From Chloroflexota bacterium (GTDB lineage: Bacteria; Chloroflexota; UBA11872; VXOZ01): a stretch of DNA of 64,000 bases. Position 1 is the stretch's first letter. Each line of letters opens with the position of its first letter. Location: assembly GCA_965220045.1 (NCBI GenBank), contig OZ244803.1, forward strand, positions 2,711,901-2,775,900, in the 5' to 3' direction. Under the pieces are notes generated by a model. The model was not told the DNA's origin. It was given only the letters and a program-made list of their open reading frames with translations, and searched no databases. Below are positions 3,943-22,401 of this stretch, piece after piece. Position numbers and translations under genes: made by a program.

Positions 3943-4217
3943 CGGTCTCCTCCTTCGTACGGAACCGCACTAAGAATCCACGCATTGATATGCCAAACAG
4001 TTTACCACACACCCTCTGGTGCCATACCTGCGTTGGCGCAGGTAGTATAGCATGGGCTTTCGCCAATTGCCAAGACATCTTAGTGCGCACCACTCACAGC
4101 AAATGAAGAACCCAAATGTCACCCCGAACGGAGTGAGAGGTCTAGGATGCCCGTTAACAGAGAATGCGCTATCACGGCCCACGCGCCACAACCGCAGGGG
4201 CAAGCGTTCATACACCC

Positions 4218-6057: not shown

Positions 6058-7422
6058 CTAGCCGCCCAGGTTGCTGAGGAACGTATCCATGATGGTCTGA
6101 AGCTCTACCTCGGTATCCCGCAGCGTCTCCTCGATGGTCTTCTCGCCGCCAAGCGCGGTCGGCACCACCCTGAGCGTAGCCCCAAGCATCTGGGGCGCGC
6201 CGGGTGCGGGGATGACGAAACGCCGGTTCTCCATCATCTCCACCGCAATCTGCAAGAAAGGATCGTTCTGGTGGTACGCCTCTTGGCGGGAAACGTCCGG
6301 CCGGATCGGCAAGGTGTTGAATGTGTGTGACCAACGGACGTTCACGTCGCCGCTGCCGAAGTGCTCCAGGAACTTCCAGGCGTTCTCCGGCTGCTCGCTC
6401 TGGGTGGTCAGGATCCAGGTGTGGCACCCGCCGTAGGTCATGTGGCGGCCGTCCGGCGGCTTGGGCCAATGGGCCACGTGATATTGCACGTCCGGCACCG
6501 TCCGTTTCATGAGGCCGTGGAGGGTACTCGGCCAGTAGAGATTGGCCACGTGCCCGTCGTAGAAGAGCAAGTGCGGACGGGTATCCTTGCGGAAGTCTTC
6601 AAGCGCCTGCCAGCCGCCCTGCATTTCGTAGATCTTCATGAGCCAGCGCAGACCCTCGATGCCCTCCGGTGTATTGATAGTCACTTTGCTCCCATCATCG
6701 CTGAGCGTCTCGCCGCCCAACTGCCACATGGGCACCATCCAGATGCTGTTGATCTGCCAGAGGGGCGCGAACGCAACCAGCTCGGTCGTATCCCCGCTGA
6801 CGCGCGTGAGCTTGGGGATCACGGCCTCAAGCTCTTCCCAGCTTTCCGGTGGGTTCTCTACGTCCACGCCGTTCTCTAGATAGACGTTGTCATTCATGAA
6901 AACCGGCCGCACGTCCGGACCGAACGGCATGCCCTGGATTTGGCCCTGCCAGGTGAGATCGCGCTGCAGCGACGGCCAGATGTCCTCCTTGCGCACCACG
7001 TCCGACGCGGCCATGAAGGGATCGAGCGGTTGCCCGATTTCCAAGGCGGCGAGGGTCTGGGCCTGCCACGAGCCGGATTGTCCGATGTCCGGGCCGCTGC
7101 CGGCGGCCATGGCGGCCTGTAGCTTGGTGACGCGGTTGCCCTCGGGAATGGTCGGGTCAACCGTAAGCCCGGGGTTCTGCTCCTCGAACTCCGCCACGAC
7201 CTCGCCCCCCAGCCCTTCGCTGAGAGTCCAGAAGGGGACGGTGAAGATCGTGATCGTGTACGGCTCCGGCGCGGGCGCCTCCGTGGGAGCAGGCTCCGCC
7301 GCGGGCTTCTCTTCCATCGTCTCCGTGGGCACCACGGCGGTGCCGCACGCCGCCAGAAGGCCGACCGCTCCGGTCAGCACGGCGCCGCGTAAGACTGCTC
7401 TTCGACTGGTCTTGATGCTCAT
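6058..7422 (-). CDS. ABC transporter substrate-binding lipoprotein, family 1 (divergent paralog)
   Basis: Signal/lipobox MSIKTSRRAVLRGAVLTGAVGLLAACGT, then an Ala/Pro/Glu linker and an SBP-1 body. Confidence 0.8.
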   Translation of the reverse strand: MSIKTSRRAVLRGAVLTGAVGLLAACGTAVVPTETMEEKPAAEPAPTEAPAPEPYTITIFTVPFWTLSEGLGGEVVAEFEEQNPGLTVDPTIPEGNRVTKLQAAMAAGSGPDIGQSGSWQAQTLAALEIGQPLDPFMAASDVVRKEDIWPSLQRDLTWQGQIQGMPFGPDVRPVFMNDNVYLENGVDVENPPESWEELEAVIPKLTRVSGDTTELVAFAPLWQINSIWMVPMWQLGGETLSDDGSKVTINTPEGIEGLRWLMKIYEMQGGWQALEDFRKDTRPHLLFYDGHVANLYWPSTLHGLMKRTVPDVQYHVAHWPKPPDGRHMTYGGCHTWILTTQSEQPENAWKFLEHFGSGDVNVRWSHTFNTLPIRPDVSRQEAYHQNDPFLQIAVEMMENRRFVIPAPGAPQMLGATLRVVPTALGGEKTIEETLRDTEVELQTIMDTFLSNLGG

Positions 7423-7643
7423 GGTCGTCTCCTTAATGCTTGCTCAAAAGTGTCTCCAGCGAGGCGTTAGGAACACGCACTGGTTTGCACCGCTATGGAA
7501 TCCACACACCCTATGCATGGTGTCGCTAAGACGCGAGCGGCTGCTCTTACTCCTTTCTTCTCGTGTTTCCCACGATTCGCCGCACTGTGACCTCAAGACG
7601 CGTACACAGGCCGGTCTCTCCGGCCAAACACCGCGCCTGCGCG

Positions 7644-9071
7644 CTAGTCCTCCGTGATCCGCTGGACGTAGCGGCGCAATTCCAATTCCAAAGCGTCGCC
7701 CACGTCGGCGTGCTCAGCCAGCACGTTTTGCTGGTCGTAGGGATCATCGGGCCGGTGGTAGAGTTCGGGTTCTGTCCGTTCCAGCCCATTGAGGAAATAG
7801 AGGTAGCGCCACTCGTGGTTTTGGATTGACCAGCAGCCCTGGTAGTGGCCCGAATAGGCGTAATCGCGCACGCTCGCCGCCTCCCCGCGCAGCAACGGCA
7901 GCACGCTGACGCCGTGCATCGCTACGTCCTTGCGTCCCACCACCAAATCTTGCGGGAAAGTGCCGGCGGTTTGCGGCGCGATGTACGCCAACGGCAGCGG
8001 CGTGGCAATGTCCAGCGCGTCCAACACCGTCGGCATAAGGTCGGTGTGCTGCACCAGCGCCTCCACGCGCGGCGGCGGCTCCGGCATGGATGCCCGCATT
8101 TCCGCCGGCAGCTTGAGCACCCAGGGCACGCGCACGAGTTCCTCGTAGTTCCACGGACGCGCCTTGCGCACGATGCCGTGCTCGCCGAACGGCTCGCCGT
8201 GGTCGCTCGTCCACATGATCAGGGTATCGTCGTAGATGCCCAGATCACGAATGTGGTCGAGCAGAATGCCCACCCATTTGTCCACGTACGTTACTTTACC
8301 CGCGTAAAGTTCCATCGTGCGTTGGAGTTCCGCCGGCGTGATGTAGCCCTCTACCATTCCCGGCACCGGATCGATGAGCTCCTGGCCGCTGTAGCCGGGG
8401 GTCTTGTACATGGACCAGAAAGGTTCCGGCGGGTCCCACGGCTCGTGGGGGTCGAAGTAGTCCACCCACAGGAAGATCTTGTCGCGCACGCCTTTCTCCT
8501 TCACCGCGCGGTCCAGCCACTGCATGGCGACTTTCGTCACCTGCGGCGTGAAGAAGTCTTCCTCGACCTTGAAATGAGCGCGGTTGCGCAGGTACTGCAC
8601 GTAGTACTCTTCCCAGAGCGCGTCAGTGTCGTCGCCCCGCAGCCGGTGCCAGCGGCTGAGGTCTACCGGCACATCCTCCGTCACCCACGGGTCAGTTGAG
8701 TTGCCGCGCACGAATTCAACCGTGCTAAACCCGCGGCCGCAATTGAAGACCGGCTTGTGCAGGTGGAAGGTATCGGTGATGAGCGCCGAGGTATAGCCTT
8801 TGTCCCAGAGGACTTCCGCTAGCAGGTAGTCGTCCAGCTTAAAGGGCTGCCAGGGACGGAACGGAAAGTGCGTGCGGCCTGTCCAGAAGACCGTCCGCGC
8901 CGGCACCGTGGGCATGCTGTCGGCGTAGGCGTGCAAGAAAGCCGTGCCGTCGGCGGCGAGGCGCTCCAGGTTGGGCGTTGCCACCTTCGTGCCGTGGTAG
9001 TCGTAACAGAGCGGGTCCAGGCTGGTGTGGTCGGCGCGGAGACTATCGGTGCAGATGACGATGATATTCAT
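7644..9071 (-). CDS. Sulfatase-family (alkaline-phosphatase superfamily) protein with Thr at the formylglycine position
   Basis: IIVICTDSLRADH...TPNLERLAADGTAFLHAYADSMPTVPARTVFWTGR. It aligns to the FGly motif of the neighbouring sulfatase but reads T-V-P-A-R instead of C-V-P-A-R. Confidence 0.75.
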   Translation of the reverse strand: MNIIVICTDSLRADHTSLDPLCYDYHGTKVATPNLERLAADGTAFLHAYADSMPTVPARTVFWTGRTHFPFRPWQPFKLDDYLLAEVLWDKGYTSALITDTFHLHKPVFNCGRGFSTVEFVRGNSTDPWVTEDVPVDLSRWHRLRGDDTDALWEEYYVQYLRNRAHFKVEEDFFTPQVTKVAMQWLDRAVKEKGVRDKIFLWVDYFDPHEPWDPPEPFWSMYKTPGYSGQELIDPVPGMVEGYITPAELQRTMELYAGKVTYVDKWVGILLDHIRDLGIYDDTLIMWTSDHGEPFGEHGIVRKARPWNYEELVRVPWVLKLPAEMRASMPEPPPRVEALVQHTDLMPTVLDALDIATPLPLAYIAPQTAGTFPQDLVVGRKDVAMHGVSVLPLLRGEAASVRDYAYSGHYQGCWSIQNHEWRYLYFLNGLERTEPELYHRPDDPYDQQNVLAEHADVGDALELELRRYVQRITED

Positions 9072-9171
9072 GGAAGAGCACTATCCTTTACGTGGACCAA
9101 CTACCGTTCTTCGTCCCAGGGCCGCCCCACGGCAGCCTGCGCGACGTTTGCGTCAGCCTCTGTTTTCGAAG

Positions 9172-9199
9172 GTAGGGGCACGATATATCGTGCCCCTAC
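9172..9199. repeat. Family-B 28 bp palindrome
   Basis: gtaggggcacgatatatcgtgcccctac, identical to the 4218 copy. Confidence 0.9.
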
Positions 9200-9321
9200 G
9201 TCACGTGGGCAAATGTCCCTACGTCATGCAGTCAATTTCCCAATGTCATGGCTTAAAATAAATAGGCCTTGGCCCCGCTAGGAGACCCCCCTTGCAACTG
9301 CGGCTATAGGGGCAAGTCTTA

Positions 9322-9354
9322 CCCCCTCTCCTGGGGGAGAGGGCCGGGGTGAGG
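9322..9354. repeat. Family-E repeat, short form (ccctctcctgggggagagggccggggtgaggg)
   Basis: Corresponds to the two ends of the 80 bp family-E element joined together. Confidence 0.7.
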
Positions 9355-9444
9355 GCGTTCTGGTTTGCCTAGCCCCTCAAACTGAGGAACCTATGTGCAA
9401 TCGTTCCAAAACGCTCATAACTCGTCTGCTTTGCAGTGTTTTCA

Positions 9445-9522
9445 CCCTCACCCCCGTATCATCCGATACTGTGTATCGGCGTACGGGGCAGGCTCTAACC
9501 CTCTCCCTCGTGAGAGAGGGGA
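9445..9522 (+). repeat. Family-E repeat, long form (about 80 bp)
   Basis: ccctcacccccgtatcatccgatactgtgtatcggcgtacggggcaggctctaaccctctccctcgtgagagagggga. About 85% identical to 43645-43725. Confidence 0.8.
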
Positions 9523-9629
9523 CTACCTCGCTGCGGCGAGGGTTACGCAAAGGTCTCCGCAGGGAGTGATTCCCTCACCTCAACAACACTGCATTGACGG
9601 GCGCGCGTGTGCGCTATGCGGGAAACCGC

Positions 9630-9792
9630 GCAGGTTACAAACCTACGCTACCCCAGGTTACAGACCCTCGCTGCCGCAGGTTACAGACCTATGCTACCCC
9701 CAGGTTGCTCACCTTCGCCGCCGCAGGTTACAAACCTGCACTACCCCAGGTTACAGACCTTCGCTACCGCAGCATGCAAACCTTCGCTACCC
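9630..9792 (+). repeat. Tandem array of 7 abutting 23 bp units (caggttacaRacctNcgctaccc), derived from the family-C palindrome
   Basis: The units abut with no spacers, so this is not a CRISPR array. Unit consensus matches the solo family-C elements gcaggttgcaaacctgcgctaccgg. Confidence 0.85.
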
Positions 9793-9816
9793 ATCTATAC
9801 TAGCGTGCTGAAACCA

Positions 9817-11196
9817 CTACAGAGATTCAGCCCACTTATCCAGGACGGCCTGCACTTCCGCTTCTTTCTGCGCCATCGCCTCTTCCGGCGTCACCGCGCG
9901 CGTGGAAGCGTTTACCCACGCTCTTCTATCAATTCCGAGGATTTCATCGTTACCGGGAATCACCGGCACCCACTTGGCTACCTTAATTTCATCCATGACA
10001 GGTATGGCATGGGGCGAGGAGCTTAGAAACTCGTCGGATCGCGCGATGGATTCCAGCGCCGGAACGAGACCGAGCGCATCCGTCCACGCAAGCTGGCTCT
10101 CTTTGGTCATGAGATGCTCGATGAAGCGGAATGCCTGGTCTTGGTGCCCGCCGACTTGCGGCATAGCGATCGACCAGCCGCCTAGGTAGTTCGTCCGCAG
10201 CCCGCCCTCAGGAATCGGCAGACCGCCCACGCCCCAGGTCACAGACGCGCCCCAGTTTTGGTAGCGCCGCGTGGTGCTGGTACCGTTATGGACCATCATG
10301 GAGACACGGCCCACGGTAAAGTGATCGTTCTGTGCGGGATTCGCGTTGCCCAGCGCCGCGGTAATGCCCTCCAGACCGCCTTGCAAGTCCAGCAAGCCCA
10401 GCATGAACTTGAGTGCGTTGATACCGGCATCGTTGTTGAAGTTCGGCTTGCGGTTGTCGGGCGTCAGGTACTCGCCGCCGAGTTGCCAGAACCAGATGTA
10501 CCACTGCAAAAAGTGCGGCGGATTGCCGAACGTCGGTGTGAACCCAATGCGCTCCACCGCGTCGCCGCTGGTCTTGTAGAGCCGCGAGGCCGCGGACTCC
10601 AACTCGTCCCAGGTGCCCACCGGCTCCTCGGGGTCCAGGCCGATTTCGATGAAGTGCTCTTTATTCCAATGGAACGCACGGCCGTCGCAATGCAATGGCA
10701 CGGCGTAGACCTTGCCCTTCCACGTCACATCCTCGCGGAGCTTCGGCCAAAAGTCCTCCCACACGAAGGTGCTGGTTGCATTCACACGCGGAGTGAGGTC
10801 GGCCAGAAACCCCGCCGCGGAGAATTGACCGGCCAGGTAGCGGTCCATGTAGAAGACCTCAGGCGGCGATCCGGCCGCAGCCGCAGTGATGAATTTCTCC
10901 CTGGCGCGCAAGCCTACGGGGATGGGCTGGACTTCGACGTTGATGGCCGGGTTTTGTTCGCGAAACCGCTCTACAATGTTGGCGGCCGGGTGGTCCGGGG
11001 TAGCGAAGACGCTGGCGGCCCAAAAGCTGATAGTCACCGGCTCCGCTGGGGCCGGTGCGGACTCTTCTGCCGCAGGCGCATCGCCTTCAGTCGTGGGCGC
11101 GGCCGCGGGCACCGCTCCGCACGCGGCGAGCACGAGCCCTCCACTCATGACACCGGCGGTTGCGAACAATCTTCTGCGGGTAACGGTCGTCGCCAT
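9817..11196 (-). CDS. ABC transporter substrate-binding lipoprotein, family 1 (carbohydrate)
   Basis: MATTVTRRRLFATAGVMSGGLVLAACGA lipobox, Ala/Pro/Glu linker, clear paralog of 2551-3942. Confidence 0.85.
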   Translation of the reverse strand: MATTVTRRRLFATAGVMSGGLVLAACGAVPAAAPTTEGDAPAAEESAPAPAEPVTISFWAASVFATPDHPAANIVERFREQNPAINVEVQPIPVGLRAREKFITAAAAGSPPEVFYMDRYLAGQFSAAGFLADLTPRVNATSTFVWEDFWPKLREDVTWKGKVYAVPLHCDGRAFHWNKEHFIEIGLDPEEPVGTWDELESAASRLYKTSGDAVERIGFTPTFGNPPHFLQWYIWFWQLGGEYLTPDNRKPNFNNDAGINALKFMLGLLDLQGGLEGITAALGNANPAQNDHFTVGRVSMMVHNGTSTTRRYQNWGASVTWGVGGLPIPEGGLRTNYLGGWSIAMPQVGGHQDQAFRFIEHLMTKESQLAWTDALGLVPALESIARSDEFLSSSPHAIPVMDEIKVAKWVPVIPGNDEILGIDRRAWVNASTRAVTPEEAMAQKEAEVQAVLDKWAESL

Positions 11197-11496
11197 CGCT
11201 CTTCCTCCCGTCTTGAAAGTTTGACGGACTTAACCATATTGAAGATATTGCTATGGATTTAACCAATAGTCAATAGCTTTCAAGGGGATTCTACTGTGGG
11301 TATGGCGAATAGGGAGGTGATTGGCAAGGTTTGAGCGCGGCGGAGCGCTCTTGAATGCCCGCCTTGCTCCCGGTCCATGGGGCGCAGACCCGCTAACCCG
11401 CGCTCGGAGGCCGCAATGGCCGTGCCGCAGGAGGCGCCGGAGTCGATCAGATTCCTATAGGAAGACTGCCTGGAGTGCGAAACATTGGACCGTCGC

Positions 11497-12069
11497 TTAA
11501 AAGGGCATATTGAATGAGAAAAGCTCCCGCAGGACGGCCCAGATGCTGCTATAGATCGCGCCCACCCAGAAGATGCCGTTGAGCGTGGTGCCGACAACGA
11601 CGAGCGTATACGCGCGCTTGCCCGTAATGCCCATAAGCCAGATGAGCGGCACGCCGGCCATCGTGGGGCCGGAGAGGGTGTAGACCAGGAGGACGACCAG
11701 GTTGCGCCGTCTCTCCGTAGCCTCGACAAATCTGCGAATCTTCTCCAGGCGAGCCGTCTTGGCGCGAATCCAATCGGAGAGATCGAGTTCGAGCAGGAGC
11801 AAGTAGAGCAACGCGCCGTTCAGGACGATCATCACCAGGATGGTGGCGGTTGTGGCGACGAAGCCATTGTAGCGCAGGATGAGATAGTTCGAAAAGATCG
11901 TAACGATGATATCGATGGACGGCCACAGCACCAGCGTGACCAACCGCCGGAGATACTTCCTCACGGTGAGAGGATCGACCTCACGCGGGGAGACGCGGTT
12001 GACGAATTTCGTCACGCGCCTCTCGATTGTGCGGTTGTCCGGCTGGGGTTCGGTGGACGTTGCGGACAT
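11497..12069 (-). CDS. Hypothetical integral membrane protein (about 4 TM helices)
   Basis: Hydrophobic helices only. No recognisable family motif. Confidence 0.4.
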   Translation of the reverse strand: MSATSTEPQPDNRTIERRVTKFVNRVSPREVDPLTVRKYLRRLVTLVLWPSIDIIVTIFSNYLILRYNGFVATTATILVMIVLNGALLYLLLLELDLSDWIRAKTARLEKIRRFVEATERRRNLVVLLVYTLSGPTMAGVPLIWLMGITGKRAYTLVVVGTTLNGIFWVGAIYSSIWAVLRELFSFNMPF

Positions 12070-12147
12070 AGAATTCAGACCGTTAATTGCAAAGTGAGTA
12101 GTCTCGCAGGGCCGCGCATAAAACCGGTCTACCGCTCGCCGGCCTCG

Positions 12148-13473
12148 TCAGCGCCCGACAACCGTATCCATGCCGACCAGCGGCACGTTGGCAATAAGCG
12201 AGGCCTCGAGGCTGAGGGCCCGCAGGTCTTCAACTTCCAGGTCATGGACGTTTGCTTTGCCGCACGCACGCGCGAGCAATTGAATTTCCTGCGTCAACGT
12301 GGCAATGAAGTTCGCCAGGCGCAGCGCCGCTTCCTCAAATCCGGGGATCTCCGCCATTGCCCCCCGGGTCATGGCAGCGCGCTCTTCATCATCGGCGGCA
12401 GCGTCGTCAACGTGTTCGGGTGATCCATCTTGTTCGAATTGCGCCGTGACGTCCCGCGACCACGGTTCCAGCGAGACCAGCGCGGCGGTGCCGATGGAGA
12501 CGGCGTCTACGCCCAAGGCCAGCGCCTTGGCTACATCGGCACCGCTGCGGATGCCGCCGCAGAGGATCAAGCCGACCTCGTCTTCAAGACCCAACTCTTC
12601 CAACGCGCGCCGGGCCTGGCACACCGCCGCGATACCGGGAACACCCGTGTTCTGGTTCAGGACTGCCGGACCGGTGGAAGCGCCGGCTTCCATGCCCTCC
12701 ACCGTGATGATGTCCGCGCCGGCTTTGGCCGCCAATAGCACGTCGTCATAGACGTGCGCGGCGCTGATCTTGACAATGATGGGCACGCGCCAGTCTGTGG
12801 CCTCCCGCAGCTCTTCCACCTTCTTGGGGAGGTCGTCCGATCCGACCCAGTCCGGGTGCCGCGTCGGCGCGTGTGAGAGGCGGGAATACGCCGTTTCCGG
12901 CAGTGTCCCCGCGGACCGCGCTCCATCCCTGTCTAAACGAGACGGCATGCCGATACTTGGACTAAGGCCGCGCACGCTCACGAGCTCGATCACGTCGGCC
13001 TGGAGCATGTGACGCGGATTGAAGTCAACGCGGCTCGGCAGCACTTCGTAGGAAAGCATTCCGGCGAATTCTCGCTCCTCCGCCAGCATGCCGCCATACC
13101 CGGTGGTGTAGACAATGCCGGCGTGGGCCGAACCGTACGCGAGCGCCGCCCGCACCACCGGCGACAGCAGTTTGGCGCCCATGCCGGCGATCGTCACCGG
13201 CGTGCTGAGCACCAGCGGCTCCCCCGCAAACCGCGTCCCCAGGGTCGTGGCGGTCGTGCACTGCTCGTAGAAGGCTTCCAACGGCACGCGGCTGAGCGCG
13301 CACGGAATCAAAGTGAGATCATCGAACGTAGGAAACGCCCGCGACCGAACCGCCCGCGCTACGCGGCCGTTTCCCGCAGCGCTGGACTCTGCCTCCGGGG
13401 CCGCTACCTGAGCGGGATCGGATCCAGCATTCCTGTTCGCCTGCGACTCCATTTCCCGAGCTAGCCTTCCCAA
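12148..13473 (-). CDS. Glutamate synthase FMN-binding domain protein (GltB domain-2-like / MgsC-like)
   Basis: IIVKISAAH...AGADIITVEGMEAGASTGP...GVP...LILCGGIRSGADVAKALALGVDAV is the glutamate-synthase central-domain signature. Confidence 0.85.
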   Translation of the reverse strand: MGRLAREMESQANRNAGSDPAQVAAPEAESSAAGNGRVARAVRSRAFPTFDDLTLIPCALSRVPLEAFYEQCTTATTLGTRFAGEPLVLSTPVTIAGMGAKLLSPVVRAALAYGSAHAGIVYTTGYGGMLAEEREFAGMLSYEVLPSRVDFNPRHMLQADVIELVSVRGLSPSIGMPSRLDRDGARSAGTLPETAYSRLSHAPTRHPDWVGSDDLPKKVEELREATDWRVPIIVKISAAHVYDDVLLAAKAGADIITVEGMEAGASTGPAVLNQNTGVPGIAAVCQARRALEELGLEDEVGLILCGGIRSGADVAKALALGVDAVSIGTAALVSLEPWSRDVTAQFEQDGSPEHVDDAAADDEERAAMTRGAMAEIPGFEEAALRLANFIATLTQEIQLLARACGKANVHDLEVEDLRALSLEASLIANVPLVGMDTVVGR

Positions 13474-14189
13474 CGTGGACTGTCATCCGTGGCAGTTTTG
13501 CCTGCGCAACCGTCCGTACCGCCGCCTGCCGCGTTAGCCATGCCACCGGCTGCGGAGCTGGCCGTGAACTTGCGGAACGGCCGCGCGTGGGCGAGACCCG
13601 CCGTGGCGACGATCCCATCGACGCGCGCGCGCTCATCTTCCGTTAGCGCGGACTCCGCCACGCCCTCGCCGAGTTGCCCCACCGCACCGGCCACGTAGAT
13701 GCGGCCGCCGTACATACCGTGTCCCAGGCGCTGACTCGCGTTTCCGCAGACGATCAGGTCCCCGTCATGCATCATGAACCCGCTCATAAACCCGACGTTG
13801 CCCCCTATCACCACCATACCACCAACCATGCCGATGCCGGTGCGGGCGGCCGCATTGCCGTGCACGCAGACTATGCCGCCGTGCAGCGCGGCGCCCGTGG
13901 CATTGCCCGCATTGCCGCGCACGACGACACTGCCGCTTTGGAGGCCTTCGCCGGTACTCCACCCGGCGCTGCCGTGAATCTCCACCGTCGGACCGTCGCC
14001 CATTGCTCCGCAATAGTAGCCGACGCTCCCCTCGAATATGAGATGCACGGGTTGAAACAACGCCACGCCGAGACTGTGCCGCCCCCGGGGATCGTAGACG
14101 TGAATGTCGTGCTCCCCCTGCTCGATCGCGTGGCGGATGAGCTGGTTCACTTCTCGCGTGGAACGATCGACCGCTTCAATGAAGAACAT
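13461..14189 (-). CDS. GXGXG-motif protein (glutamate synthase C-terminal domain / FwdC / MgsB-like)
   Basis: Repeated G-rich beta-helix segments (VRGNAGNATGAALHGGIVCVHGNAAARTGIGMVGGMVVIGGNVG) typical of the GXGXG domain. Confidence 0.8.
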   Translation of the reverse strand: MFFIEAVDRSTREVNQLIRHAIEQGEHDIHVYDPRGRHSLGVALFQPVHLIFEGSVGYYCGAMGDGPTVEIHGSAGWSTGEGLQSGSVVVRGNAGNATGAALHGGIVCVHGNAAARTGIGMVGGMVVIGGNVGFMSGFMMHDGDLIVCGNASQRLGHGMYGGRIYVAGAVGQLGEGVAESALTEDERARVDGIVATAGLAHARPFRKFTASSAAGGMANAAGGGTDGCAGKTATDDSPRWEG

Positions 14190-14213
14190 GATGCCTATTC
14201 AGGATTTGGCGAT

Positions 14214-15155
14214 CTATTCAGGGGATTCTAAGGGCACGTGGGTCCGGGCGCGCCACACGTGCACTTCTTTGGCGTCAGGCTCCCACGTCGCCAATTCTTG
14301 CTCCAGCCCCTCGCAGATCGCGGCGGCTTCTGAGCTGACGACGACAAATTCATCGGTTTCGGCGATGACGAGCGGCCGCGCACCCATGAAGTCCTTGGCC
14401 GCGCCGAGTTCCTTGTCGGTTGCCGCGACAAAGGCATAGGTGCCATCGAGCACGTCAAGCGAGGCGCGCATCGCATCTTCCAGCGAGGCTCCCTGATCCA
14501 TCTCCATCGCCAGGAAGGCGCCAATCACCTCCGCGTCATTCGTGGTGAAGAAGCGCTGTCCCTTAGACTCGAACTTCCGGCGGAGCTTGTGGTAGTTGGT
14601 GACTTGCCCCGCATGCGCCACCGCCATGTCTGGCCGCGGCCGCGCCCAGAACGGCTGCGAATGGCTTACGTCGACGCGACTTTCCGTGGCCAGGCGCGCT
14701 TGGCCGATCATGTGGGTGCCCCGTATCGCAGAGAGATTGTATTCCGCTTCAAGATGCTCGATTGAGCCGACGTCCTTGACGATGCTGAGACGGCGGCCGA
14801 CACTGAAACACTCGACGTCACCGCCTTCGCTAACGCTCTCGATGATGCTTACTATCCCATGAATATCTTCGACCCTGTCGAGGACGAGTTGCAGGGCATG
14901 ACCCACCATGCGCGACTTCACGACTTTGGCCTTGCGGCCCACCCGCCGCACCACGCGCCCGCTCAGCGTGCGCACGTCGTCGCCTTCCATCTTCACCGCC
15001 ACCAAGAACTGGCCGTACGTCTCCGGCACGAAGAACGCCGCCCCGGTAGAATCCGGCGCGTATGGCGAGAGCGAACGCAGCATCTTCATGGCAATGTCAC
15101 CGATTGGCGCATAGCCGTCGCCGCCGCGGTCGAGGTAGCCGACGACTCCATACAT
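14214..15155 (-). CDS. Class-II glutamine-amidotransferase-like (Ntn) subunit (GltB domain-1 / MgsA-like). The N-terminus is MYG, not MCG
   Basis: Size and profile match GATase-2 (GVVGY..., ...AHAGQVTNY...). There is an in-frame TAG 7 codons upstream and no alternative start, so residue 2 is Tyr where the Cys nucleophile is expected. Confidence 0.7.
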   Translation of the reverse strand: MYGVVGYLDRGGDGYAPIGDIAMKMLRSLSPYAPDSTGAAFFVPETYGQFLVAVKMEGDDVRTLSGRVVRRVGRKAKVVKSRMVGHALQLVLDRVEDIHGIVSIIESVSEGGDVECFSVGRRLSIVKDVGSIEHLEAEYNLSAIRGTHMIGQARLATESRVDVSHSQPFWARPRPDMAVAHAGQVTNYHKLRRKFESKGQRFFTTNDAEVIGAFLAMEMDQGASLEDAMRASLDVLDGTYAFVAATDKELGAAKDFMGARPLVIAETDEFVVVSSEAAAICEGLEQELATWEPDAKEVHVWRARTHVPLESPE

Positions 15156-15295
15156 ATCTGCAACCTTTCTTCTTCTATCATACGCCTTAAAGGCCAGAGC
15201 GCACGCCTTTGTCGCTTCAGCTACGCCGCAGAATGGCTTGCAGCATCAGACCGATCGCATGCAGCGACCGGAGACGCAAACGCGGTTTTGCATGC

Positions 15296-15325
15296 TTGAC
15301 CCTCTTTTTGCGCCGCACCTATAAT
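15296..15325 (+). promoter_or_regulatory. Consensus sigma-70-type promoter (TTGACC, 18 nt spacer, TATAAT) about 80 nt upstream of the tRNA
   Basis: ttgacc ctctttttgcgccgcacc tataat, read directly. Confidence 0.5.
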
Positions 15326-15405
15326 TTAAGGGCACCCATCAGGGCGGCACTGAGGCCGGATGTGCGGTCCTCAAATCATGACTGCGGCCGTATGCTGCAG
15401 AATCC

Positions 15406-15480
15406 GCCGACGTAGCTCAATGGCAGAGCAGCGGTTTTGTAAACCGCAGGCTATGGGTTCGAATCCCTTCGTCGGCTCCA
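15406..15480 (+). tRNA. tRNA-Thr (anticodon UGU), CCA encoded
   Basis: Cloverleaf folds by hand: acceptor gccgacg/cgtcggc, D stem gctc/gagc, anticodon stem gcggt/accgc with loop ttTGTaa, T loop ttcgaat, 3' CCA. Confidence 0.8.
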
Positions 15481-15647
15481 ATTGCTGGTGGACTTGCCAG
15501 CTCCCTGGGCGGGTGGTCGGTTTCTGGGCACACCGGCTTGGTTCGTTTCTGTTTCGCAGTTGAGCGGAGAGAACGGATTTGCGCTTGCGTGCGGTGTTGA
15601 AAAGCTGCGCGGCGGGCGGCATAGTCTGCTGAAAGGGGAGGCGCACC

Positions 15648-17891
15648 GTGGCACGGGTTGATGCAAAGTGGGTATCGATCGAAGTCCAACCTGAATCCGG
15701 CGCCGAACCGGACCGGTGCGACGTTGCCTTCCACGGTGTTGACGGCGCCGTAGACCGGGGCTTAGCGCTCACTCTGCCCGCTGGCAGAGTAGGGACCTGG
15801 GAGCTTACCGTAACCGTCCGGGATGCCGTGCAGGTTGGCGGCGGCTTCCTGTTCCAGCGTCACGGCTTTCTGCTCGGGCACCGTGTGCAGGATTACAATC
15901 CGCGCGGGCGCGACTACGTTACGCTGGAGTCCCACACGGGGACGCCCTTGCGTCTGGTGGTGAATTCCCTCAACCAGTCCCACCGGCCGAGCTTTGCCCA
16001 GGTGCTCGTGACTGATGGCGCACTCGCGCCGGGCGACCGCTTTACGCTGCGGATCGGCGACCGGCGGCAAGGCGGCGCCGGCAGTGAGGTCTACGACTCC
16101 ACGACGCTAGGCCGTTTCGTCATGGCCGTTGACCGTACCGGCGCGGGATCCTACCGCACGCTGGCGTGCAGCCCGGCGAGCATCCGGATTACGGCTGAGC
16201 CCCAGCCGGACAAGCTGCGTGTCCTCGGCCCCTCCGTGGTCGCGCCCGATGAACCCTTTGCCCTTCACCTGGTGGCCTTCGACCGGCATCGCAATGTGTG
16301 CGACCGGTACCGGGGTACGGTGGCCTTCTCCGACGCCGGTTCGGCATACGCCGGGCTTCCGCCGGCAGTCACGTTCACCGCACGGGAACAGGGAATTCTC
16401 GTCATCGATGACGTGCGCCTAACGTCACCCGGCCTCTATCGTCTCTCTGCTATAGACGAAGAAAGCGGCTTGCAGGCGCTGAGCAATCCTGTCCTCTGCG
16501 AGACCGCGCCGGAGCGACGTCTCTTGTGGGGTGAATTGCATTGCCATAGCTGGGGCGACACGACGCTGGCGCTGATGAGCGAGCCGAACTTCAAGGTACA
16601 TCCCGCCCGGCGGCACGAGCAGGCGCGGCAGGTGGGTCGCCTGGACTTCTGTTCGCCGGGGCCGATGTCCGCGCCCGATGACGCAGTCCGGCCCGAGGTC
16701 TGGCAGGCGCACCAAGCGGCCTACCATGCCAATGACGAGCCGGGCACGTACGTACCATTCCTGGCCTATGAGGCGCATCCGGGCACCGGCGGTGACCGCA
16801 ACGTCGTCTTTCATGCACATGAAGCCACTCATCTGCCCATGAAAGCATCCATGGACGACGTGATGGCTACGTACGGCGACCGTGCTGACGTGTTGTTGGA
16901 AGCCCACATTGGCGGCGGCCCACCCAACTGGACCGCCTATCCCACCGAGGAAGCGCCGCTGCTGGAGGTCACGAGCGGGCACGGGGCGTTCGAGTGGGTG
17001 CTGCAGCGCGCGCTCCGCCACGGCTACCATCCGGCGGTGATTGGTTCGAGCGACGTGCACCTGCCGACGCTTGGCGCGCCCATGTCGGCTCACTGCTTCC
17101 GGGGTCGCTTCAACCATGAACTCAACATCCGCGATACGGCGTTTGGCAGCGGCCAGGTGGCCGGGGTCTACGCGGCAGCCTGCGAACGAGAAGCAATCTG
17201 GCAGGCGATCCGGGACCGGCGTACGTTTGCCACCACCGGCGCGCGCATCATCCTGGACGTGAGCGCGAATGGGGAACCGGCCGGCAGTTTTGTCACGTCG
17301 TCCGGAGACGTGGATCTGCGCATTGTCGCGCACGGCTGTGCGCCAATCGAGCGGATGGACGTGATTCGCGGCGACCGCTGCTTGATTTCCTGGTTTCCCG
17401 GTGAACTTGACTCGTCAATCGGCTACACCGACACGCAACCCCTGCGCGCAGGCGCCTATTATGTACGCCTCCGCCAGACGGATGGCGAATATGCCTGGAG
17501 CACGCCGGTCTGGGTTCACTGTGCCGACGGCAGTGCTGCGCCCGATCCGAACCAGCCGCTGTGGAACGCCCACGAGCCCGTTGACCTAACGCAATTGCGG
17601 CCGAATGGGGCGGAGCAATATGAGGCCGCGCTCCTGGAATACCTGGAAATAGAGGAAGACCCGGCGCTGTTCCGAGACCTGACTCCGGTGAAACTGCTCG
17701 ATGAAGCGCCCGGCCGCTCGGCCTTGTTCTACGCCTACTACGCCGACGACGGCTGGCCGGTGAGTATTCGCTGGTACTACGAGTTCGACCTGCCGCGCAT
17801 CCACCTGGACTGGGGCTGGCGCGATTTCGGCGCGCGCCCCACCCCCACGAACATCACCGAACCGGCGGAAGAGAAACCGCCTTTGGCCTGA
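15648..17891 (+). CDS. DUF3604 family protein (predicted metal-dependent hydrolase)
   Basis: LWGELHCHSWGD (HxH), ...LDFCSPG..., GSSDVH, REAIWQAIRDRRTFATTGARIILD and C-terminal ...YYVRLRQTDGEYAWSTPVWV match the DUF3604 pattern I recall. Paralog of 61704-63641. Confidence 0.65.
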   Translation: MARVDAKWVSIEVQPESGAEPDRCDVAFHGVDGAVDRGLALTLPAGRVGTWELTVTVRDAVQVGGGFLFQRHGFLLGHRVQDYNPRGRDYVTLESHTGTPLRLVVNSLNQSHRPSFAQVLVTDGALAPGDRFTLRIGDRRQGGAGSEVYDSTTLGRFVMAVDRTGAGSYRTLACSPASIRITAEPQPDKLRVLGPSVVAPDEPFALHLVAFDRHRNVCDRYRGTVAFSDAGSAYAGLPPAVTFTAREQGILVIDDVRLTSPGLYRLSAIDEESGLQALSNPVLCETAPERRLLWGELHCHSWGDTTLALMSEPNFKVHPARRHEQARQVGRLDFCSPGPMSAPDDAVRPEVWQAHQAAYHANDEPGTYVPFLAYEAHPGTGGDRNVVFHAHEATHLPMKASMDDVMATYGDRADVLLEAHIGGGPPNWTAYPTEEAPLLEVTSGHGAFEWVLQRALRHGYHPAVIGSSDVHLPTLGAPMSAHCFRGRFNHELNIRDTAFGSGQVAGVYAAACEREAIWQAIRDRRTFATTGARIILDVSANGEPAGSFVTSSGDVDLRIVAHGCAPIERMDVIRGDRCLISWFPGELDSSIGYTDTQPLRAGAYYVRLRQTDGEYAWSTPVWVHCADGSAAPDPNQPLWNAHEPVDLTQLRPNGAEQYEAALLEYLEIEEDPALFRDLTPVKLLDEAPGRSALFYAYYADDGWPVSIRWYYEFDLPRIHLDWGWRDFGARPTPTNITEPAEEKPPLA

Positions 17892-18188: not shown

Positions 18189-19223
18189 ATGCGCCCGCTC
18201 GCCTTCGAATACGACCTCTCCCAACACATCGATGAAGCGGAGCCGACAATGCTCTTCACCGGCTCCACGCCTGAGGAGCTCCGCGACTGGCAGGAGCGCT
18301 TCCGCGCCAAAGTGCTGAGCCTGCTGGGCATCCTGCCGGAGCGCGCCGCCCTCGTGGTCGAGTACGAGGAGGAAGTTGACTGCGGCGCCTACATCCGCCA
18401 CAAGCTGCGCTACCAGACCGAGGCAGCAGTCTGGGTGCCGGCCTATCTCCTGGTACCCAAAGGCGTATCCGCCGCGCAGCCAACAGCCGCGATCCTCTGT
18501 TTGCACGGCCACGGGCGCTTCGGCAAAGACAGCGTGGTCGGCATCAAGGACACGCCGGAGCGTACCGACGAGGTGGAACGCCTGCAGTACGACTTCGGCC
18601 GCCGCTTTGCCGAGCAGGGCTACGTGGTGCTCGCGCCCGACCTGCGCGGCTTTGGCGAGCGCCAGCCGCACTACCCTGATCCCAAGCCCGACTACTGCTG
18701 CCGCAACTACATGGCCGCGACGCTGCTGGGCCGCACCGTGGTCGGCTATCAGCTCTGCGACCTGCACGCGGCGTTGGACGTGCTGCAGTCGCTACCCTAC
18801 GTAGATGCCGAGAAGCTCGCCGCGGCGGGTCTTTCCTACGGCGGGCGCATGACAATGCTGATCAGCGCCATGGACGACCGCATCAGGGCCTGCGTGCCTT
18901 CCGGCTGCCTGAACATGTACCAGGAGCGCTACCAGAACCTGCACCAGTGCGGATCGCAACTCATTCCCAGCCTGTTGCTCTACGGCGACACGCCCGAGAT
19001 CTTCTCGCTTATCGCGCCCCGCCAGATGACTATCGAGTGGGGCCTGCAGGATAAGCTCATCCCCCACGAGTGGGCCGAGCGCGGCCTCGCCCGCATCCGC
19101 AACGCCTACGCCGCCTCCGGGCAACCGGAGAATCTCGCCGTGCACCAGTTTGATAAAGGCCACGTCTTCGAAGGCACCGTGGGCGCGGAGATGCTGCACC
19201 AGTGGCGGCAGGGCGTACAATGA
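18189..19223 (+). CDS. Alpha/beta hydrolase (dienelactone hydrolase / acetyl-xylan-esterase-like)
   Basis: LCLHGHG..., nucleophile elbow GLSYGG, C-terminal His region. AGGAGG RBS 8 nt upstream. Confidence 0.7.
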   Translation: MRPLAFEYDLSQHIDEAEPTMLFTGSTPEELRDWQERFRAKVLSLLGILPERAALVVEYEEEVDCGAYIRHKLRYQTEAAVWVPAYLLVPKGVSAAQPTAAILCLHGHGRFGKDSVVGIKDTPERTDEVERLQYDFGRRFAEQGYVVLAPDLRGFGERQPHYPDPKPDYCCRNYMAATLLGRTVVGYQLCDLHAALDVLQSLPYVDAEKLAAAGLSYGGRMTMLISAMDDRIRACVPSGCLNMYQERYQNLHQCGSQLIPSLLLYGDTPEIFSLIAPRQMTIEWGLQDKLIPHEWAERGLARIRNAYAASGQPENLAVHQFDKGHVFEGTVGAEMLHQWRQGVQ

Positions 19224-19286
19224 AGAATGTGACCCATTCGCCAGAACCCGCGCGGAGACTGACCGCAGAGTAGGGGCAAACACGGC

Positions 19287-20717
19287 GTGAAGAGACTCGT
19301 CGCAATACTCGTGCTGGGCCTTGGCCTGGCGTTACTAACCGCCACCTCCATCGGCGCAAGCGTGGACTGCCAGTTCGTGCTGGGCTTCAAGACGCTGCGG
19401 GACCTCGTCGGCCACGAGACCGTGGGCGAATGCCTTGAGAACGAACATCACAGCGCCAACGGCGACAGTGTGCAGCGCACCACCGGTGGGCTTCTGGTCT
19501 GGCGCAAGCAGGACAACTGGACCGCATTCACGGACGGCTACCGCACCTGGATCAACGGCCCCAACGGACTGCAGCAGCGGCTGAACACCGAGCGCTTCCC
19601 GTGGGAGTACGACTACGCGCCGGGTGGCGGCGTCGCAACGCCAACGCCAACTCCCATCCCACCCCCAACGCCGACACCGATCCCATCGCCCTCGCCAACT
19701 CCTACCCAACGGATAGATCCCCGCCTCGGCCGGGCATTGCAGGCGCTTCAGGCAACGTCGCTCGGCCGGACAATCTACGCCTGGTTCACGGAAGCAGCGC
19801 CCAGCGTGACGTTTGGCACAGCGCCGAAAGGTTGGACGTCCCGCTACCATGACCCGCCGCGCAACGAGATCGTCGTCGATGCGGCTCTGCGCAACGAGAG
19901 TGCCGACGTGCTCGCCGCCCTCATCGCCTGGGAGACGGTGCTGGCGGTCAATAGCAAGCGCCGCGGCCCGCAAAGCGAGCGCTGGCGCTCCGGTGCAGAC
20001 TGTCTGAACGAGGTGGTTGACGCCGAAGGCGCTATGGCGCGCTGGTGGCTTTCGCGCTATGGCCAAGAGGGCTTGCGCGATCCGAATACGGCAACGGAGC
20101 GTTTGCTCAACTTCCATGCGCGGAGCTACCGCGACCAAACCCTGGAAACGTCGGTGCTGTCGTCTGCGGCGTACCGTGAGTGGTGCGCGCAATACGGCAC
20201 GCTGCCGCCTATTCCCGAGCCGGAACAATTCGTCGACCCTCAGCTGGAATCAGCGCTTCGGCTCATGCGTACCACGGAATTTGGCGAAAACCTCTACGCA
20301 GCCTACCTACGTTCCAATGTCCATTACCTTGGCTTTGAGGACTTGAGCCGCGTACACGTGAAGAACGTGCTGGGCCTCTATGACGTAAACCGCGGCCGAA
20401 TCTTGCTCGACGACTCTCTCCGCGACGCCAGTCAATACATGCGCGTGTCCGTGCTGGTGCATGAGCTGTACCACGCTCGGCCCGGTCAGGACTTTAGGGA
20501 CTTTACCACGGAGCAGTGCTTCGAAGAAGAAACGCTGGCGTTCAGCGCTCAGGCGAAGTGGTGGCACGAGAAGTTTGGCGCGCGCGGCAAGCGCAATCCG
20601 ACAGCAAACGAGCGGTGGATGAACTCTGTTCTGAGGCTATGGCTTGCGGGACGGATCGATGAGTGGGTAGAACAGAGCGAAGGCTACCAGGAAGTGTGCG
20701 CACAGCACGGCGATTAG
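19287..20717 (+). CDS. Secreted hypothetical protein with a Pro/Thr linker, an internally duplicated domain and one HExxH motif
   Basis: Signal peptide MKRLVAILVLGLGLALLTATSIGA, linker TPTPTPIPPPTPTPIPSPSPTPT, and VLVHELYHA in the second copy of the duplicated module. Confidence 0.5.
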   Translation: MKRLVAILVLGLGLALLTATSIGASVDCQFVLGFKTLRDLVGHETVGECLENEHHSANGDSVQRTTGGLLVWRKQDNWTAFTDGYRTWINGPNGLQQRLNTERFPWEYDYAPGGGVATPTPTPIPPPTPTPIPSPSPTPTQRIDPRLGRALQALQATSLGRTIYAWFTEAAPSVTFGTAPKGWTSRYHDPPRNEIVVDAALRNESADVLAALIAWETVLAVNSKRRGPQSERWRSGADCLNEVVDAEGAMARWWLSRYGQEGLRDPNTATERLLNFHARSYRDQTLETSVLSSAAYREWCAQYGTLPPIPEPEQFVDPQLESALRLMRTTEFGENLYAAYLRSNVHYLGFEDLSRVHVKNVLGLYDVNRGRILLDDSLRDASQYMRVSVLVHELYHARPGQDFRDFTTEQCFEEETLAFSAQAKWWHEKFGARGKRNPTANERWMNSVLRLWLAGRIDEWVEQSEGYQEVCAQHGD

Positions 20718-21054
20718 ACGCGCGGGCCCGTTACCCGTTAAGAGATGTCTGATCAAGCGTTGTGCTCGGTCAGCGCTGTACGGAGGGGTGAAAGAGTGTT
20801 GCCGAGCGCCTGGCTCTAATCCTCACCGACAACTCCTTTGCTAAATGTGCCGCGAGGGCTTGTAGCCGGCCATGCCCTGCGCTACCATCGAATATGGCGA
20901 ATCCCGCGCCGGACTCTCTGACCGGGTACCTGCGCTATCCGGCAATGGCGAGAGTAAAGGGGATGCGTGTCCTCGGGAATGCTTGTGGCCCTGCTTGCGG
21001 CCGCCGAGATGTCGGGACGTTTCTCATAGTTGAGAAGCCGGAGCGCGCAGGGCC

Positions 21055-22401
21055 GTGGCTTTTCTCCCAATGAGAAAGAGTTTCCACATGACACAGCAGA
21101 AGCACTTCAAGCAGCTCGTTCGCAGCCGCATGGCGAAAACCGGCGAAAGCTACACCACCGCCCGCCGCCACGTACTGGCAGCCCGCACAGAAAGCGATAC
21201 TACCTTGTCAGAATCTCCCCACTTTCCCGGCGCCCATCCAGAGACGACGGCACTGCGCACGGCGTTGGCCCACGCGGGCATCACGAATCCCGCGACCGGC
21301 GACTTCTTCACGGAGGCCATGGTGTTCGGCATCGCCGGGGGAATAGGCGCGGGCGTATTCCACTTCTACTACGCCGCCGAGGACTTTGCCAGCTTCTACG
21401 TGGCCGGACGGCACCGCTGGCACGAGAGCGACGCCTACGTGCACGACGCTAGTCTGCGCTTTGGGGTAACACCGACCGTCCTCGAATCCGGCGGCAAGAA
21501 GAAGGCCGCCACGCAATTGGCCGAGGCGGTCGAGGCAACGGGCTGCGCCATCGCCTGGGTGGAAATGGCGCTCTTGGCCTACCGGGGCATACCGAGTTTC
21601 TATGCCGGCGGCGGCTACCATGTCATTACGGTATATAACCTGACGGCTGACGAGGCGCTGATTGGCGACCTTACCGATAAACCGATCGCCATTCCCCTCA
21701 GCGACTTGGCGGAAGCCCGCGCGCGTATCAAGAAGCAGAAGAACCGCGTGCTGACAGTGAGCGGTTCCCAGCAGGACTTCGACCTGCGTGAGGCTGTACA
21801 GGCGGGCATCCAGGCGTGCCGCGACGGCCTGCAGAACCAGCGCATGAAGAACTTCACGCTGGAGGCCTTCAAGACCTGGGCCGGCCGCATTCACGGCAGC
21901 AGCGGCAAAGATAGCTGGGAGCAGGTCTTTCCCCCCGGGCACAGACTCCTACAAGGGCTGCGCTCGGTCTACGACTTTGTCGAGCACTACCACACCGGCG
22001 GCGGCTTGATGCGGCCGCTCTACGCCGCGTTCTTCAGCGAGGCCGCCGCAGCGCTGGAGGATGATTCCTTTCTGCCGCTCGCGGAGGCGTACGCCGATCT
22101 CGGCCGCTTGTGGAGCGAACTCGCCGACGCGGCGCTGCCGGACAGCGTGGCGCCCTTCCGCGAAGCCAAGGAACTGCTCGCCCGCCGGGAAGAGCTATTT
22201 CTCAGCCAAGGCGCTGCCGCCACGGAGGAAGTCAAGGGCATTTGGACCCAACTCACCGCCCTGGAGCAAGTCATGAGCCAGGACTTCCCGCTCTCCGACG
22301 CCGCAAGCGCCGACCTCCGGGCGGAACTTAAGGAGCGCATCTTGCAAATCTATGCCAAAGAGTGCGCCGCCCAAGAGGCGCTGGCGGCCTTACTGGGCTA
22401 G
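21055..22401 (+). CDS. Hypothetical protein, possibly BtrH-N/DUF4872-like
   Basis: Weak resemblance (ALRTAL..., FFTEAMVFGIAGGIGAGVFHFYY...). The start may be downstream (Met at 21088 or 21130). Confidence 0.35.
   Translation: MAFLPMRKSFHMTQQKHFKQLVRSRMAKTGESYTTARRHVLAARTESDTTLSESPHFPGAHPETTALRTALAHAGITNPATGDFFTEAMVFGIAGGIGAGVFHFYYAAEDFASFYVAGRHRWHESDAYVHDASLRFGVTPTVLESGGKKKAATQLAEAVEATGCAIAWVEMALLAYRGIPSFYAGGGYHVITVYNLTADEALIGDLTDKPIAIPLSDLAEARARIKKQKNRVLTVSGSQQDFDLREAVQAGIQACRDGLQNQRMKNFTLEAFKTWAGRIHGSSGKDSWEQVFPPGHRLLQGLRSVYDFVEHYHTGGGLMRPLYAAFFSEAAAALEDDSFLPLAEAYADLGRLWSELADAALPDSVAPFREAKELLARREELFLSQGAAATEEVKGIWTQLTALEQVMSQDFPLSDAASADLRAELKERILQIYAKECAAQEALAALLG

Follow-up and report, generated by a model that had tools for sequence, protein, structure and literature searches.

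The stretch of DNA considered here (hereafter the window) comprises 64,000 nucleotides of contig OZ244803.1 (positions 2,711,901 to 2,775,900 of the forward strand; assembly GCA_965220045.1) from a Chloroflexota bacterium. It contains a cassette of four genes, which we call A, B, C and D (Table 1), the first three of which resemble the mgsABC genes of N-methylglutamate synthase (Mgs). Judged from its sequence, the cassette is a repurposed Mgs paralogue in which the nucleophilic cysteine of the amidotransferase-like subunit A has been replaced by tyrosine, and in which subunit C has lost both the residues that hold the substrate and the iron–sulfur (Fe–S) ligands. It is not a glutamate synthase (GltS or GOGAT), nor is it likely to work as an N-methylglutamate synthase. 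Tentatively, and with somewhat less than even confidence, we take it to encode a putative complex dependent on flavin mononucleotide (FMN), with a reshaped pocket, a new reaction, a non-hydrolytic A and an association with the membrane via D. The reference point for much of what follows is the mechanism of GltS, which involves a glutaminase site, a tunnel, 2-oxoglutarate facing the FMN and the entry of electrons through a [3Fe-4S] cluster (PMC8097209).

The cysteine-to-tyrosine change in A

Among 5.8 billion proteins searched, a compact set of homologues shows 76-96% identity to A. Tyrosine stands at residue 2 in all 25 of the full-length close homologues (P0001-P0025), and a 233-aa fragment (P0027) likewise begins M-Y-G; overall, residue 2 is Tyr in 26/26 clade sequences, as against Cys in 92/92 more distant relatives. 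The relatives at ≤47% identity to A all have the canonical Cys, presented as M-C-G or M-C-A, in a few cases behind longer called N-termini. Six independent assemblies, read at the DNA level, use TAT or TAC for the tyrosine and ATG or GTG for the start, the latter behind a conserved Shine–Dalgarno motif. In the window itself the start reads ATG TAT GGA, with an in-frame TAG seven codons upstream, no ATG, GTG or TTG in between, and a Shine–Dalgarno-like AAAGG about 9 nt upstream of the start. A preliminary description of this DNA, made from its letters alone, had reported the M-Y-G start, the upstream stop and the lack of any other start, all of which can be read directly, and had concluded that the Cys nucleophile is absent while asking for a check on a sequencing error at codon 2; the use of both TAT and TAC for a tyrosine found in every clade member upholds that conclusion. 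The change from Cys to Tyr is a genuine trait of the clade, and a sequencing error or a mis-called start is excluded.

The clade stands well apart from its relatives. In a HMMER pass over 1.84 billion cluster representatives, the entire clade formed one 50% cluster (616 bits); the next match scored 253 bits at 45% identity, with no intermediates between the two. The stem branch of the Tyr clade has a length of 0.38, compared with a median of 0.045. The clade is confined to a narrow lineage of Chloroflexota.

Loss of other active-site residues in A

The 26 clade sequences of A were compared with the 92 Cys-bearing relatives, residues being mapped through alignments to PDB entries (for A, Bacillus subtilis PurF, 1ao0); an Escherichia coli GlmS sequence served only as a ruler, and the mapping does not depend on it. 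At the equivalents of C1/R26/G27/H/R73/N98/G99/D123, the signature of A is YYAQRAGD where the canonical one is CRGHRNGD. The motif RRGPDS has become SP[Y/H/F/Q][A/T]PDS in the clade, such that the Arg-Gly positioning pair is lost (R26 to His, Tyr, Phe or Gln; G27 to Ala or Thr), and the His-Thr ahead of the substrate Arg has become Gln-Ala. The oxyanion-hole asparagine is present in 92/92 outgroup sequences, whereas the clade has Ala in 13 and Thr in 13 (HNG to HAG or HTG); PurF has AHNGN where the window has AHAGQ. Kept, on the other hand, are R154 and D207, which align with the Arg and Asp of PurF and GlmS (the R73 and D123 equivalents) that anchor the α-carboxylate and α-amino groups of the substrate. 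Further changes, T153A, V180A, N182A/T and S208A, put small residues in place of larger ones around Tyr2, as would fit a tyrosine lying in the former glutamine pocket. Tyr2 is fixed in the clade; the remaining former catalytic positions drift.

The N-terminal Cys, the oxyanion Asn-Gly and the Arg-Gly motif by which an active class-II (N-terminal nucleophile, Ntn) amidotransferase is recognized are thus all missing from A, which does have the Ntn fold and the Arg and Asp of the amino-acid pocket. The amide-hydrolysing end of the predicted pocket is dismantled and its predicted amino-acid-binding end is kept. Hydrolysis of glutamine or of a γ-glutamylamide is impossible for the cassette. Added to this is the specificity of methionine aminopeptidase: Tyr at position 2 (P1') should block removal of the initiator Met, and therefore no N-terminal nucleophile chemistry would be possible. 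Such losses are rare among the relatives. Within the top 150 representatives, one full-length protein besides the clade (P0406) lacks both Cys1 and the oxyanion Asn, and most of the remaining Cys-less exceptions listed there look N-terminally truncated or mis-started.

Substrate loops and Fe–S ligands of C, and changes in B

Subunit C was compared with 68 canonical C proteins from genome loci and then with 92 from the protein search. It scores 152 bits against PF01645, as compared with 326 bits for the canonical paralogue, and the differences include the two former substrate loops. The canonical GQGAKPGTGG, which aligns with AQGAKPGEGG of GltS (1llw alignment), reads VRG[L/V]SPSIGM in the clade; K972 and Q969 of GltS (Synechocystis numbering) map to S171 and R168 of the window C, and V167, R168, S171 and I174 are fixed in ≥90% of the 26 clade members. 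The Arg equivalent to R992 (canonical '..R.LP.GVDQRSP', aligned to GltS 'MLRRS') falls in a variable stretch of clade C. We take K972 and R992 to be the Lys and Arg that bind 2-oxoglutarate at the synthase site of GltS. The second loop, GGTGASP, has also been rewritten (DGMEGGTGASP to EGMEAGASTGP). Clade-specific fixed residues include R168, S171, R198, H201 and E259.

The four cysteines of the canonical ALNCN...CHHCHTG.CPVG.TTQDP segment are invariant in 68/68 canonical C proteins and have all gone from the Tyr-type C. In their place is a linker that differs in sequence and length from one clade member to another. In alignments with solved GltS structures, the canonical segment falls on the LGC...CH..CPVG region, the ligand region of the [3Fe-4S] cluster. 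The window C accordingly has neither the 2-oxoglutarate Lys/Arg pair nor the Fe–S ligands of GltS. It may be added that canonical Mgs-type C proteins (e.g. that of locus L020, 8879-10228) have four invariant Cys and, compared with the [3Fe-4S] motif of GltS with its three Cys, an insertion of 16 residues; the Mgs cluster may therefore differ from the GltS cluster, for instance by a fourth ligand. The cofactors of Mgs are still uncharacterized and its mechanism is unresolved (PMC6237917).

What C retains is the set of GGIRSG.DV...GT flavin-phosphate strands and, overall, 130 of the 228 positions that are invariant in canonical C. Among the replaced invariants, 36 have become fixed to a new residue across the 26 clade members, with a concentration in the two former substrate loops, and another 36 are variable, chiefly in what was the Fe–S segment and in the central part of the long loop. 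The 36 newly fixed residues, the two substrate loops included, speak for a remodelling of the pocket rather than mere decay. In an AlphaFold model of C the barrel core has a predicted local distance difference test (pLDDT) score of 80-95, and the N-terminal 56 residues and three rewritten segments fall below 50. The model matches FMN-dependent (β/α)8 barrels, with its best query-normalized template modelling (TM) score to GltS 1ofd.

Subunit B has also changed at residues that are invariant (75/75) in its canonical relatives: R103H, K122V, Q141H, D157H/S158G and D176G. The spacing of these changes, about 19 residues, suggests that they lie on one face of the β-helix.

Gene organization and gene D

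The open reading frames and Pfam domains agree with the earlier claim of three co-oriented genes, encoding GATase-II-like, GXGXG and FMN-domain proteins in mgsABC order, and the profile searches called for there matched GATase_6/7, GXGXG and PF01645. Of the subunit sizes first given, those of A (313 aa) and B (242 aa) stand; C more likely has 434 residues than 441. Its start is most likely the ATG at 13452, rather than the TTG at 13473, because this is the choice of the gene callers, all homologues have their starts in line with its Met, and the stop of B lies 8 nt before it. All four genes are on the minus strand in the same orientation, and the spacers are short (A–B 24 nt, B–C 8 nt, C–D 78 nt); A–B–C–D therefore look like one operon. 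Scans for sigma-70 promoters and terminators gave no convincing site on the minus strand, and an Rfam scan of 11200-15800 (E≤1) gave a tRNA as its sole match and no riboswitch.

D is found 78 nt downstream of C; neither this gene nor the losses in C and, beyond Cys1, in A had been mentioned in the preliminary description. All Tyr-type loci have D, and none of the Cys-type loci examined does. Across the protein collection it has 33 homologues (68-100% identity) and nothing more distant, and no family in Pfam, NCBIfam or PADLOC matches it; the PADLOC defence-system models likewise gave no match for A, B, C or the neighbouring DUF3604 protein. Its hydropathy profile has four hydrophobic segments, and both the N-terminus and the central loop are basic; D is probably a protein of four transmembrane (TM) helices with both basic regions in the cytoplasm. 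The AlphaFold2 model of D is poor (pLDDT 52, predicted TM score 0.30).

Selection and the canonical paralogue

When the window is compared with five other clade loci, the ratio of non-synonymous to synonymous substitution rates (dN/dS) of A, B, C and D is 0.06-0.22 at dS ~1 (0.12-0.18 for D). One genome pair has both Tyr-type and canonical copies, and there the ratio is 0.08-0.11 for Tyr-type A–C. All four genes are under purifying selection, and the cassette is a maintained paralogue rather than a decaying copy. In the same genome pair, the dN of the Tyr-type subunits is close to that of the canonical ones for A (0.100 vs 0.082) and B (0.099 vs 0.094); C is considered below.

There is direct evidence that both kinds of cassette can occur together, since chromosome OZ244922.1 holds a Tyr-type (L011) and a Cys-type (L021) cassette. 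The gene for P0001, a 96% homologue of A, lies at 1.12 Mb on a chromosome of 3,349,120 bp, and OZ244814.1, also of 3,349,120 bp, carries a canonical mgsABC at 1.92 Mb followed by mgd-like genes with SoxA and GCV_T domains (L020); the P0001 cassette and L020 probably share this chromosome. A third case of two copies on one chromosome is likely for P0166 and L030 (3,555,265 bp). A canonical copy thus coexists on one Tyr-type chromosome at the least, and probably on three. Since clade genomes carry the Cys-bearing mgsABC of canonical type, with mgd-like genes, at another site, the role of Mgs is already filled.

Relationship to known systems

The nearest relatives in sequence are of the MgsABC type (EC 2.1.1.21), with identities of 40-47% for A, ~43% for B and ~49% (≤54%) for C. 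Like MgsABC, the cassette has three separate subunits of similar sizes in the order amidotransferase-like, GXGXG, FMN; as had been stated at the outset, it groups with split relatives in this order and not with the fused GltB. Its nearest relatives stand beside mgd-like and gmaS-like genes. Unlike MgsABC, it has no Cys1, oxyanion Asn or Fe–S cysteines, its 2-oxoglutarate/glutamate loop is rewritten, it has no linkage to gmaS or mgd, it includes the extra gene D, it coexists with a canonical copy and its C evolves faster. None of the invariants of the MgsABC family (Cys1 in A; GQGAKPGTGG, GGTGASP and the four Cys in C) is found in the window cassette. It should be noted that NCBIfam holds no Mgs-specific model, and that canonical A and C match generic families below cut-off only.

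With the α subunit of GltS/GOGAT (1ofd, 1ea0, 7mfm) the cassette shares the folds of the PurF-type Ntn domain, the FMN (β/α)8 barrel and the C-terminal β-helix, along with the FMN-phosphate motifs. It differs in that three proteins take the place of one, no central domain is obvious and an electron-donor partner is missing, and in lacking Cys1, the [3Fe-4S] ligand segment and the equivalents of Q969, K972 and R992. A precedent of another kind is provided by the β-lactam and carbapenam synthetases, homologues of asparagine synthetase B in which a class-II amidotransferase domain without an N-terminal Cys is retained non-hydrolytically in a working enzyme. Their acceptor domain is unrelated, ATP-dependent and still catalytic, with recognizable residues; in the present cassette, by contrast, the partner FMN domain is also without the known catalytic residues.

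A second Cys-less Mgs-like lineage is represented by P0406 (loci L090/L091, assembly GCA_016307145.1, contigs JADMIO011260286.1 and JADMIO011270943.1, genes at 8001-13035). As in the Tyr clade, its A has no Cys (it starts M-A-G) and no oxyanion Asn, and its C has a deletion of the Fe–S segment and an altered Lys loop. Unlike the Tyr clade, its A is only 32% identical, D has no homologue there, a PIG-L family gene follows, and C is a protein of 872 aa with an N-terminal extension of ~500 aa that has no Pfam match, scoring 61 bits against PF01645. The B of L090 has 226 aa, and the locus is preceded by a 1242-aa multi-peptidase protein (M14, Tricorn_N, DPPIV, S9) and a DDE transposase. L090 groups with the Tyr clade in 99/100 neighbour-joining bootstraps of concatenated A+B+C, in a tree that is unrooted relative to the archaeal split GltS; both are long branches, and the grouping may be a case of long-branch attraction. 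Cys1 and the Fe–S ligands have been lost together in both lineages, which hints at a functional link between the two in canonical Mgs enzymes.

What might the cassette do?

In the reading that we favour, A would be a non-hydrolytic structural or ligand-binding subunit, perhaps still binding an amino acid, and C would still be an FMN protein, but with a remodelled substrate pocket and without a route for electrons from outside. Together, A, B and C would carry out a new reaction, independent of glutamine and of an Fe–S cluster, on a substrate other than 2-oxoglutarate or glutamate, and the complex would probably work at the membrane through D. What suggests such a reaction is the conjunction of a rewritten pocket in C, the disappearance of the Fe–S ligands and a non-hydrolytic A. 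Several observations weigh against it. C evolves about five-fold faster than its canonical counterpart (dN 0.121 vs 0.024 in the same genome pair) and its rewritten segments are among those modelled at pLDDT <50, either of which fits a non-catalytic protein equally well; several of the former catalytic positions of A are variable inside the clade; and the neighbourhood provides no usable functional clue, the clade genomes being closely related and a tRNA gene sitting between the cassette and the divergent DUF3604 gene.

Alternatively, A, B and C might all be non-catalytic, the Mgs scaffold having been kept as a structural, sensing or regulatory module in which, for example, A could bind an amino acid through its kept Arg/Asp pocket and act either on the membrane protein D or by way of it. 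Evidence for this includes the loss of all known catalytic modules and of the extreme conservation of canonical C (mean identity 78% across phyla, but ≤54% to Tyr-clade C, along with the five-fold dN), the low confidence of the rewritten loops in the model, the reduction of the Fe–S segment to a variable acidic linker, and D as an obligate partner; the C of L090 is even more degenerate, and its extension looks non-enzymatic. Yet the FMN-phosphate motifs and more than half of the canonical invariants of C are retained, the newly fixed residues are concentrated where the substrate was formerly held, and dN/dS is ~0.1 on all subunits, such that we regard a wholly non-catalytic complex as rather unlikely, if still a serious candidate. 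A broader statement, which we offer with some doubt, would embrace both possibilities: an ancient glutamate-synthase/Mgs scaffold may have been turned into a membrane-associated A–B–C–D complex, which either has a new active site for another substrate in its FMN barrel or is a ligand-sensing pseudoenzyme; the joint loss of the nucleophile and the Fe–S cluster, met again in the distant L090 lineage, would then mark out an unrecognized 'Cys-less, Fe–S-less' branch of the family.

The preliminary description had itself suggested an Mgs-like amine:2-oxoglutarate transfer, in which a glutaminase-independent enzyme would combine a free amine with glutamate or 2-oxoglutarate at the FMN site. The nearest relatives are indeed Mgs-type cassettes, and mgsABC alone, without gmaS, has been reported to yield some N-methylglutamate from methylamine, a direct route from methylamine and glutamate having also been proposed (as cited in PMC6237917). 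However, every clade member has Ser for K972 and Arg for Q969, has lost the R992 equivalent and has a rewritten GGTGASP loop; the residues of C that would hold the substrate are therefore missing, there is no mgd or gmaS gene in the 64 kb, and the canonical copy with its mgd-like genes fills the Mgs role in clade genomes. We accordingly depart from that suggestion, which now appears improbable. The companion claim that the cassette is no true GOGAT is borne out. A genuine split GOGAT of the archaeal type, using ammonia or glutamine, would account for the Pfam domains, which are those of GltS domains 1, 3 and 4, but Cys1, the oxyanion Asn, the Fe–S ligands and the K972/R992 equivalents have all gone, the cassette includes no GltD-like or ferredoxin-like partner, and the NCBIfam model for the GltB large subunit (cut-off 1047) scores the window C at 43.7 bits and a canonical Mgs-type C at 139.7; it is very improbable. 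The chance that we are dealing with an artefact or with decay, whether through a sequencing error in codon 2, a Cys concealed by a wrongly called start or pseudogenization of the cassette, is negligible: TGT and TAT are a single transition apart and C is less conserved than canonical C, but against this stand the two tyrosine codons in 26/26 sequences, the ATG and GTG starts behind a conserved Shine–Dalgarno motif and the upstream in-frame stop, the correlated losses at four further catalytic positions, and the intact reading frames with their low dN/dS.

In the literature on glxBCD, DUF3604, GXGXG pseudoenzymes and Mgs in sponges or Chloroflexi, we found no description of this variant. Automatic annotation labels its products 'glutamine amidotransferase', 'glutamate synthase domain-containing protein' and 'methylamine-glutamate N-methyltransferase subunit', and metabolic reconstructions of these uncultured Chloroflexota would then wrongly include a second enzyme for assimilating nitrogen or methylamine. 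The cassette is of interest in its own right as a natural case of coordinated active-site loss over three subunits with selection maintained, and the matched canonical paralogue in the same genome provides a control for biochemistry on the repurposing of the glutamate-synthase scaffold.

Genomic neighbourhood

Canonical relatives have mgsABC beside mgd-like genes, of the sarcosine-oxidase, GCV_T and DAO families, and a gmaS-like Gln-synt_C gene, in agreement with the operon reported from Methylobacterium extorquens (PMC6237917). When gmaS-like, SoxA/GCV_T mgd-like and DAO sequences from canonical clusters were used as tblastn queries, nothing in the 64-kb window matched, and the only Mgs-like matches there are the cassette itself; the first report that gmaS and mgd are absent nearby therefore holds for the whole window. 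No mgd or gmaS neighbours occur at any Tyr-type locus examined, whereas they are present beside Cys-type relatives.

All six Tyr-type loci compared have in common an abhydrolase gene, a DUF3604 gene and tRNA-Thr on one side of the cassette and solute-binding protein and sulfatase genes on the other. The neighbourhood was considered as a functional clue and rejected: the neighbours are 78-92% identical (78-91% for the DUF3604 protein) and are more conserved than A–D, from which it follows that the genomes are simply close relatives and that no function can be read from the synteny. Genes for tRNA are common insertion points for genomic islands; no integrase was seen.

Table 1. Positions of the cassette genes, of the motifs discussed in the text and of adjacent features in the window.
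Feature	Position	Strand	Description
Gene A	14214-15155	minus	313 aa, starts M-Y-G; class-II (Ntn) amidotransferase fold; Pfam GATase_6/GATase_7, E 4e-15 / 2e-18
Codon 2 of A	15150-15152	minus	TAT, Tyr where the Cys1 nucleophile is expected
A residues 180-184, AHAGQ	14604-14618	minus	Canonical motif VHNGH; oxyanion-hole Asn replaced by Ala
Gene B	13461-14189	minus	242 aa, GXGXG β-helix subunit; Pfam GXGXG, E 1e-16
Gene C	12148-13452 (434 aa, ATG) or 12148-13473 (441 aa, TTG)	minus	FMN glutamate-synthase domain; Glu_synthase PF01645, E 3e-44
C residues 167-176 (441 numbering), VRGLSPSIGM	12946-12975	minus	Canonical counterpart GQGAKPGTGG
C residues 303-332, ILCGGIRSGADVAKALALGVDAVSIGTAAL	12478-12567	minus	FMN-phosphate-binding strands kept; invariant GGI..G.D / GT columns common to canonical relatives and GltS
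C residues 334-372	12358-12474	minus	Acidic linker without Cys, in the place of the canonical LNCN...CHHCHTG.CPVG.TTQDP Fe–S ligand segment
Gene D	11497-12069	minus	190 aa, four predicted TM helices, clade-restricted
Promoter-like site	15296-15325	plus	TTGACC-18-TATAAT, near-consensus (11/12), ahead of tRNA-Thr
tRNA-Thr(TGT)	15406-15480	plus	Between A and the divergent DUF3604 gene; same tRNA beside the cassette in six of six other Tyr-type loci
DUF3604 protein	15648-17891	plus	747 aa; weak CehA/McbA metallohydrolase match, NF038032 36 bits, under the cut-off of 80

The wider flanks (4255-11196 and 18189-24894) look like a neighbourhood for the scavenging of polymers or organosulfates. They are rich in sulfatases (4255-5928 and 7644-9071) and solute-binding proteins (SBP_bac_1 at 6058-7422 and 9817-11196; SBP_bac_5 at 22912-24894), and also carry an Abhydrolase_7 esterase, a DUF6782-like putative metallopeptidase and a BtrH_N/DUF4872 protein. 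Directly downstream of the solute-binding protein gene at 9817-11196 there is a gap of 745 nt that contains, at 9629-9792, about seven tandem copies of a 23-nt unit (CAGGTTACAAACCTTCGCTACCC) with 73% match, which can alternatively be described as 3.5 copies of a 46-nt unit; a short G-rich 12-nt repeat occurs at 9334-9356. The GC content of the window is 0.54-0.57 at 1-4000 and 30001-32000 compared with ~0.61 elsewhere, and reaches its maximum of 0.657 in the cassette (12001-14000).

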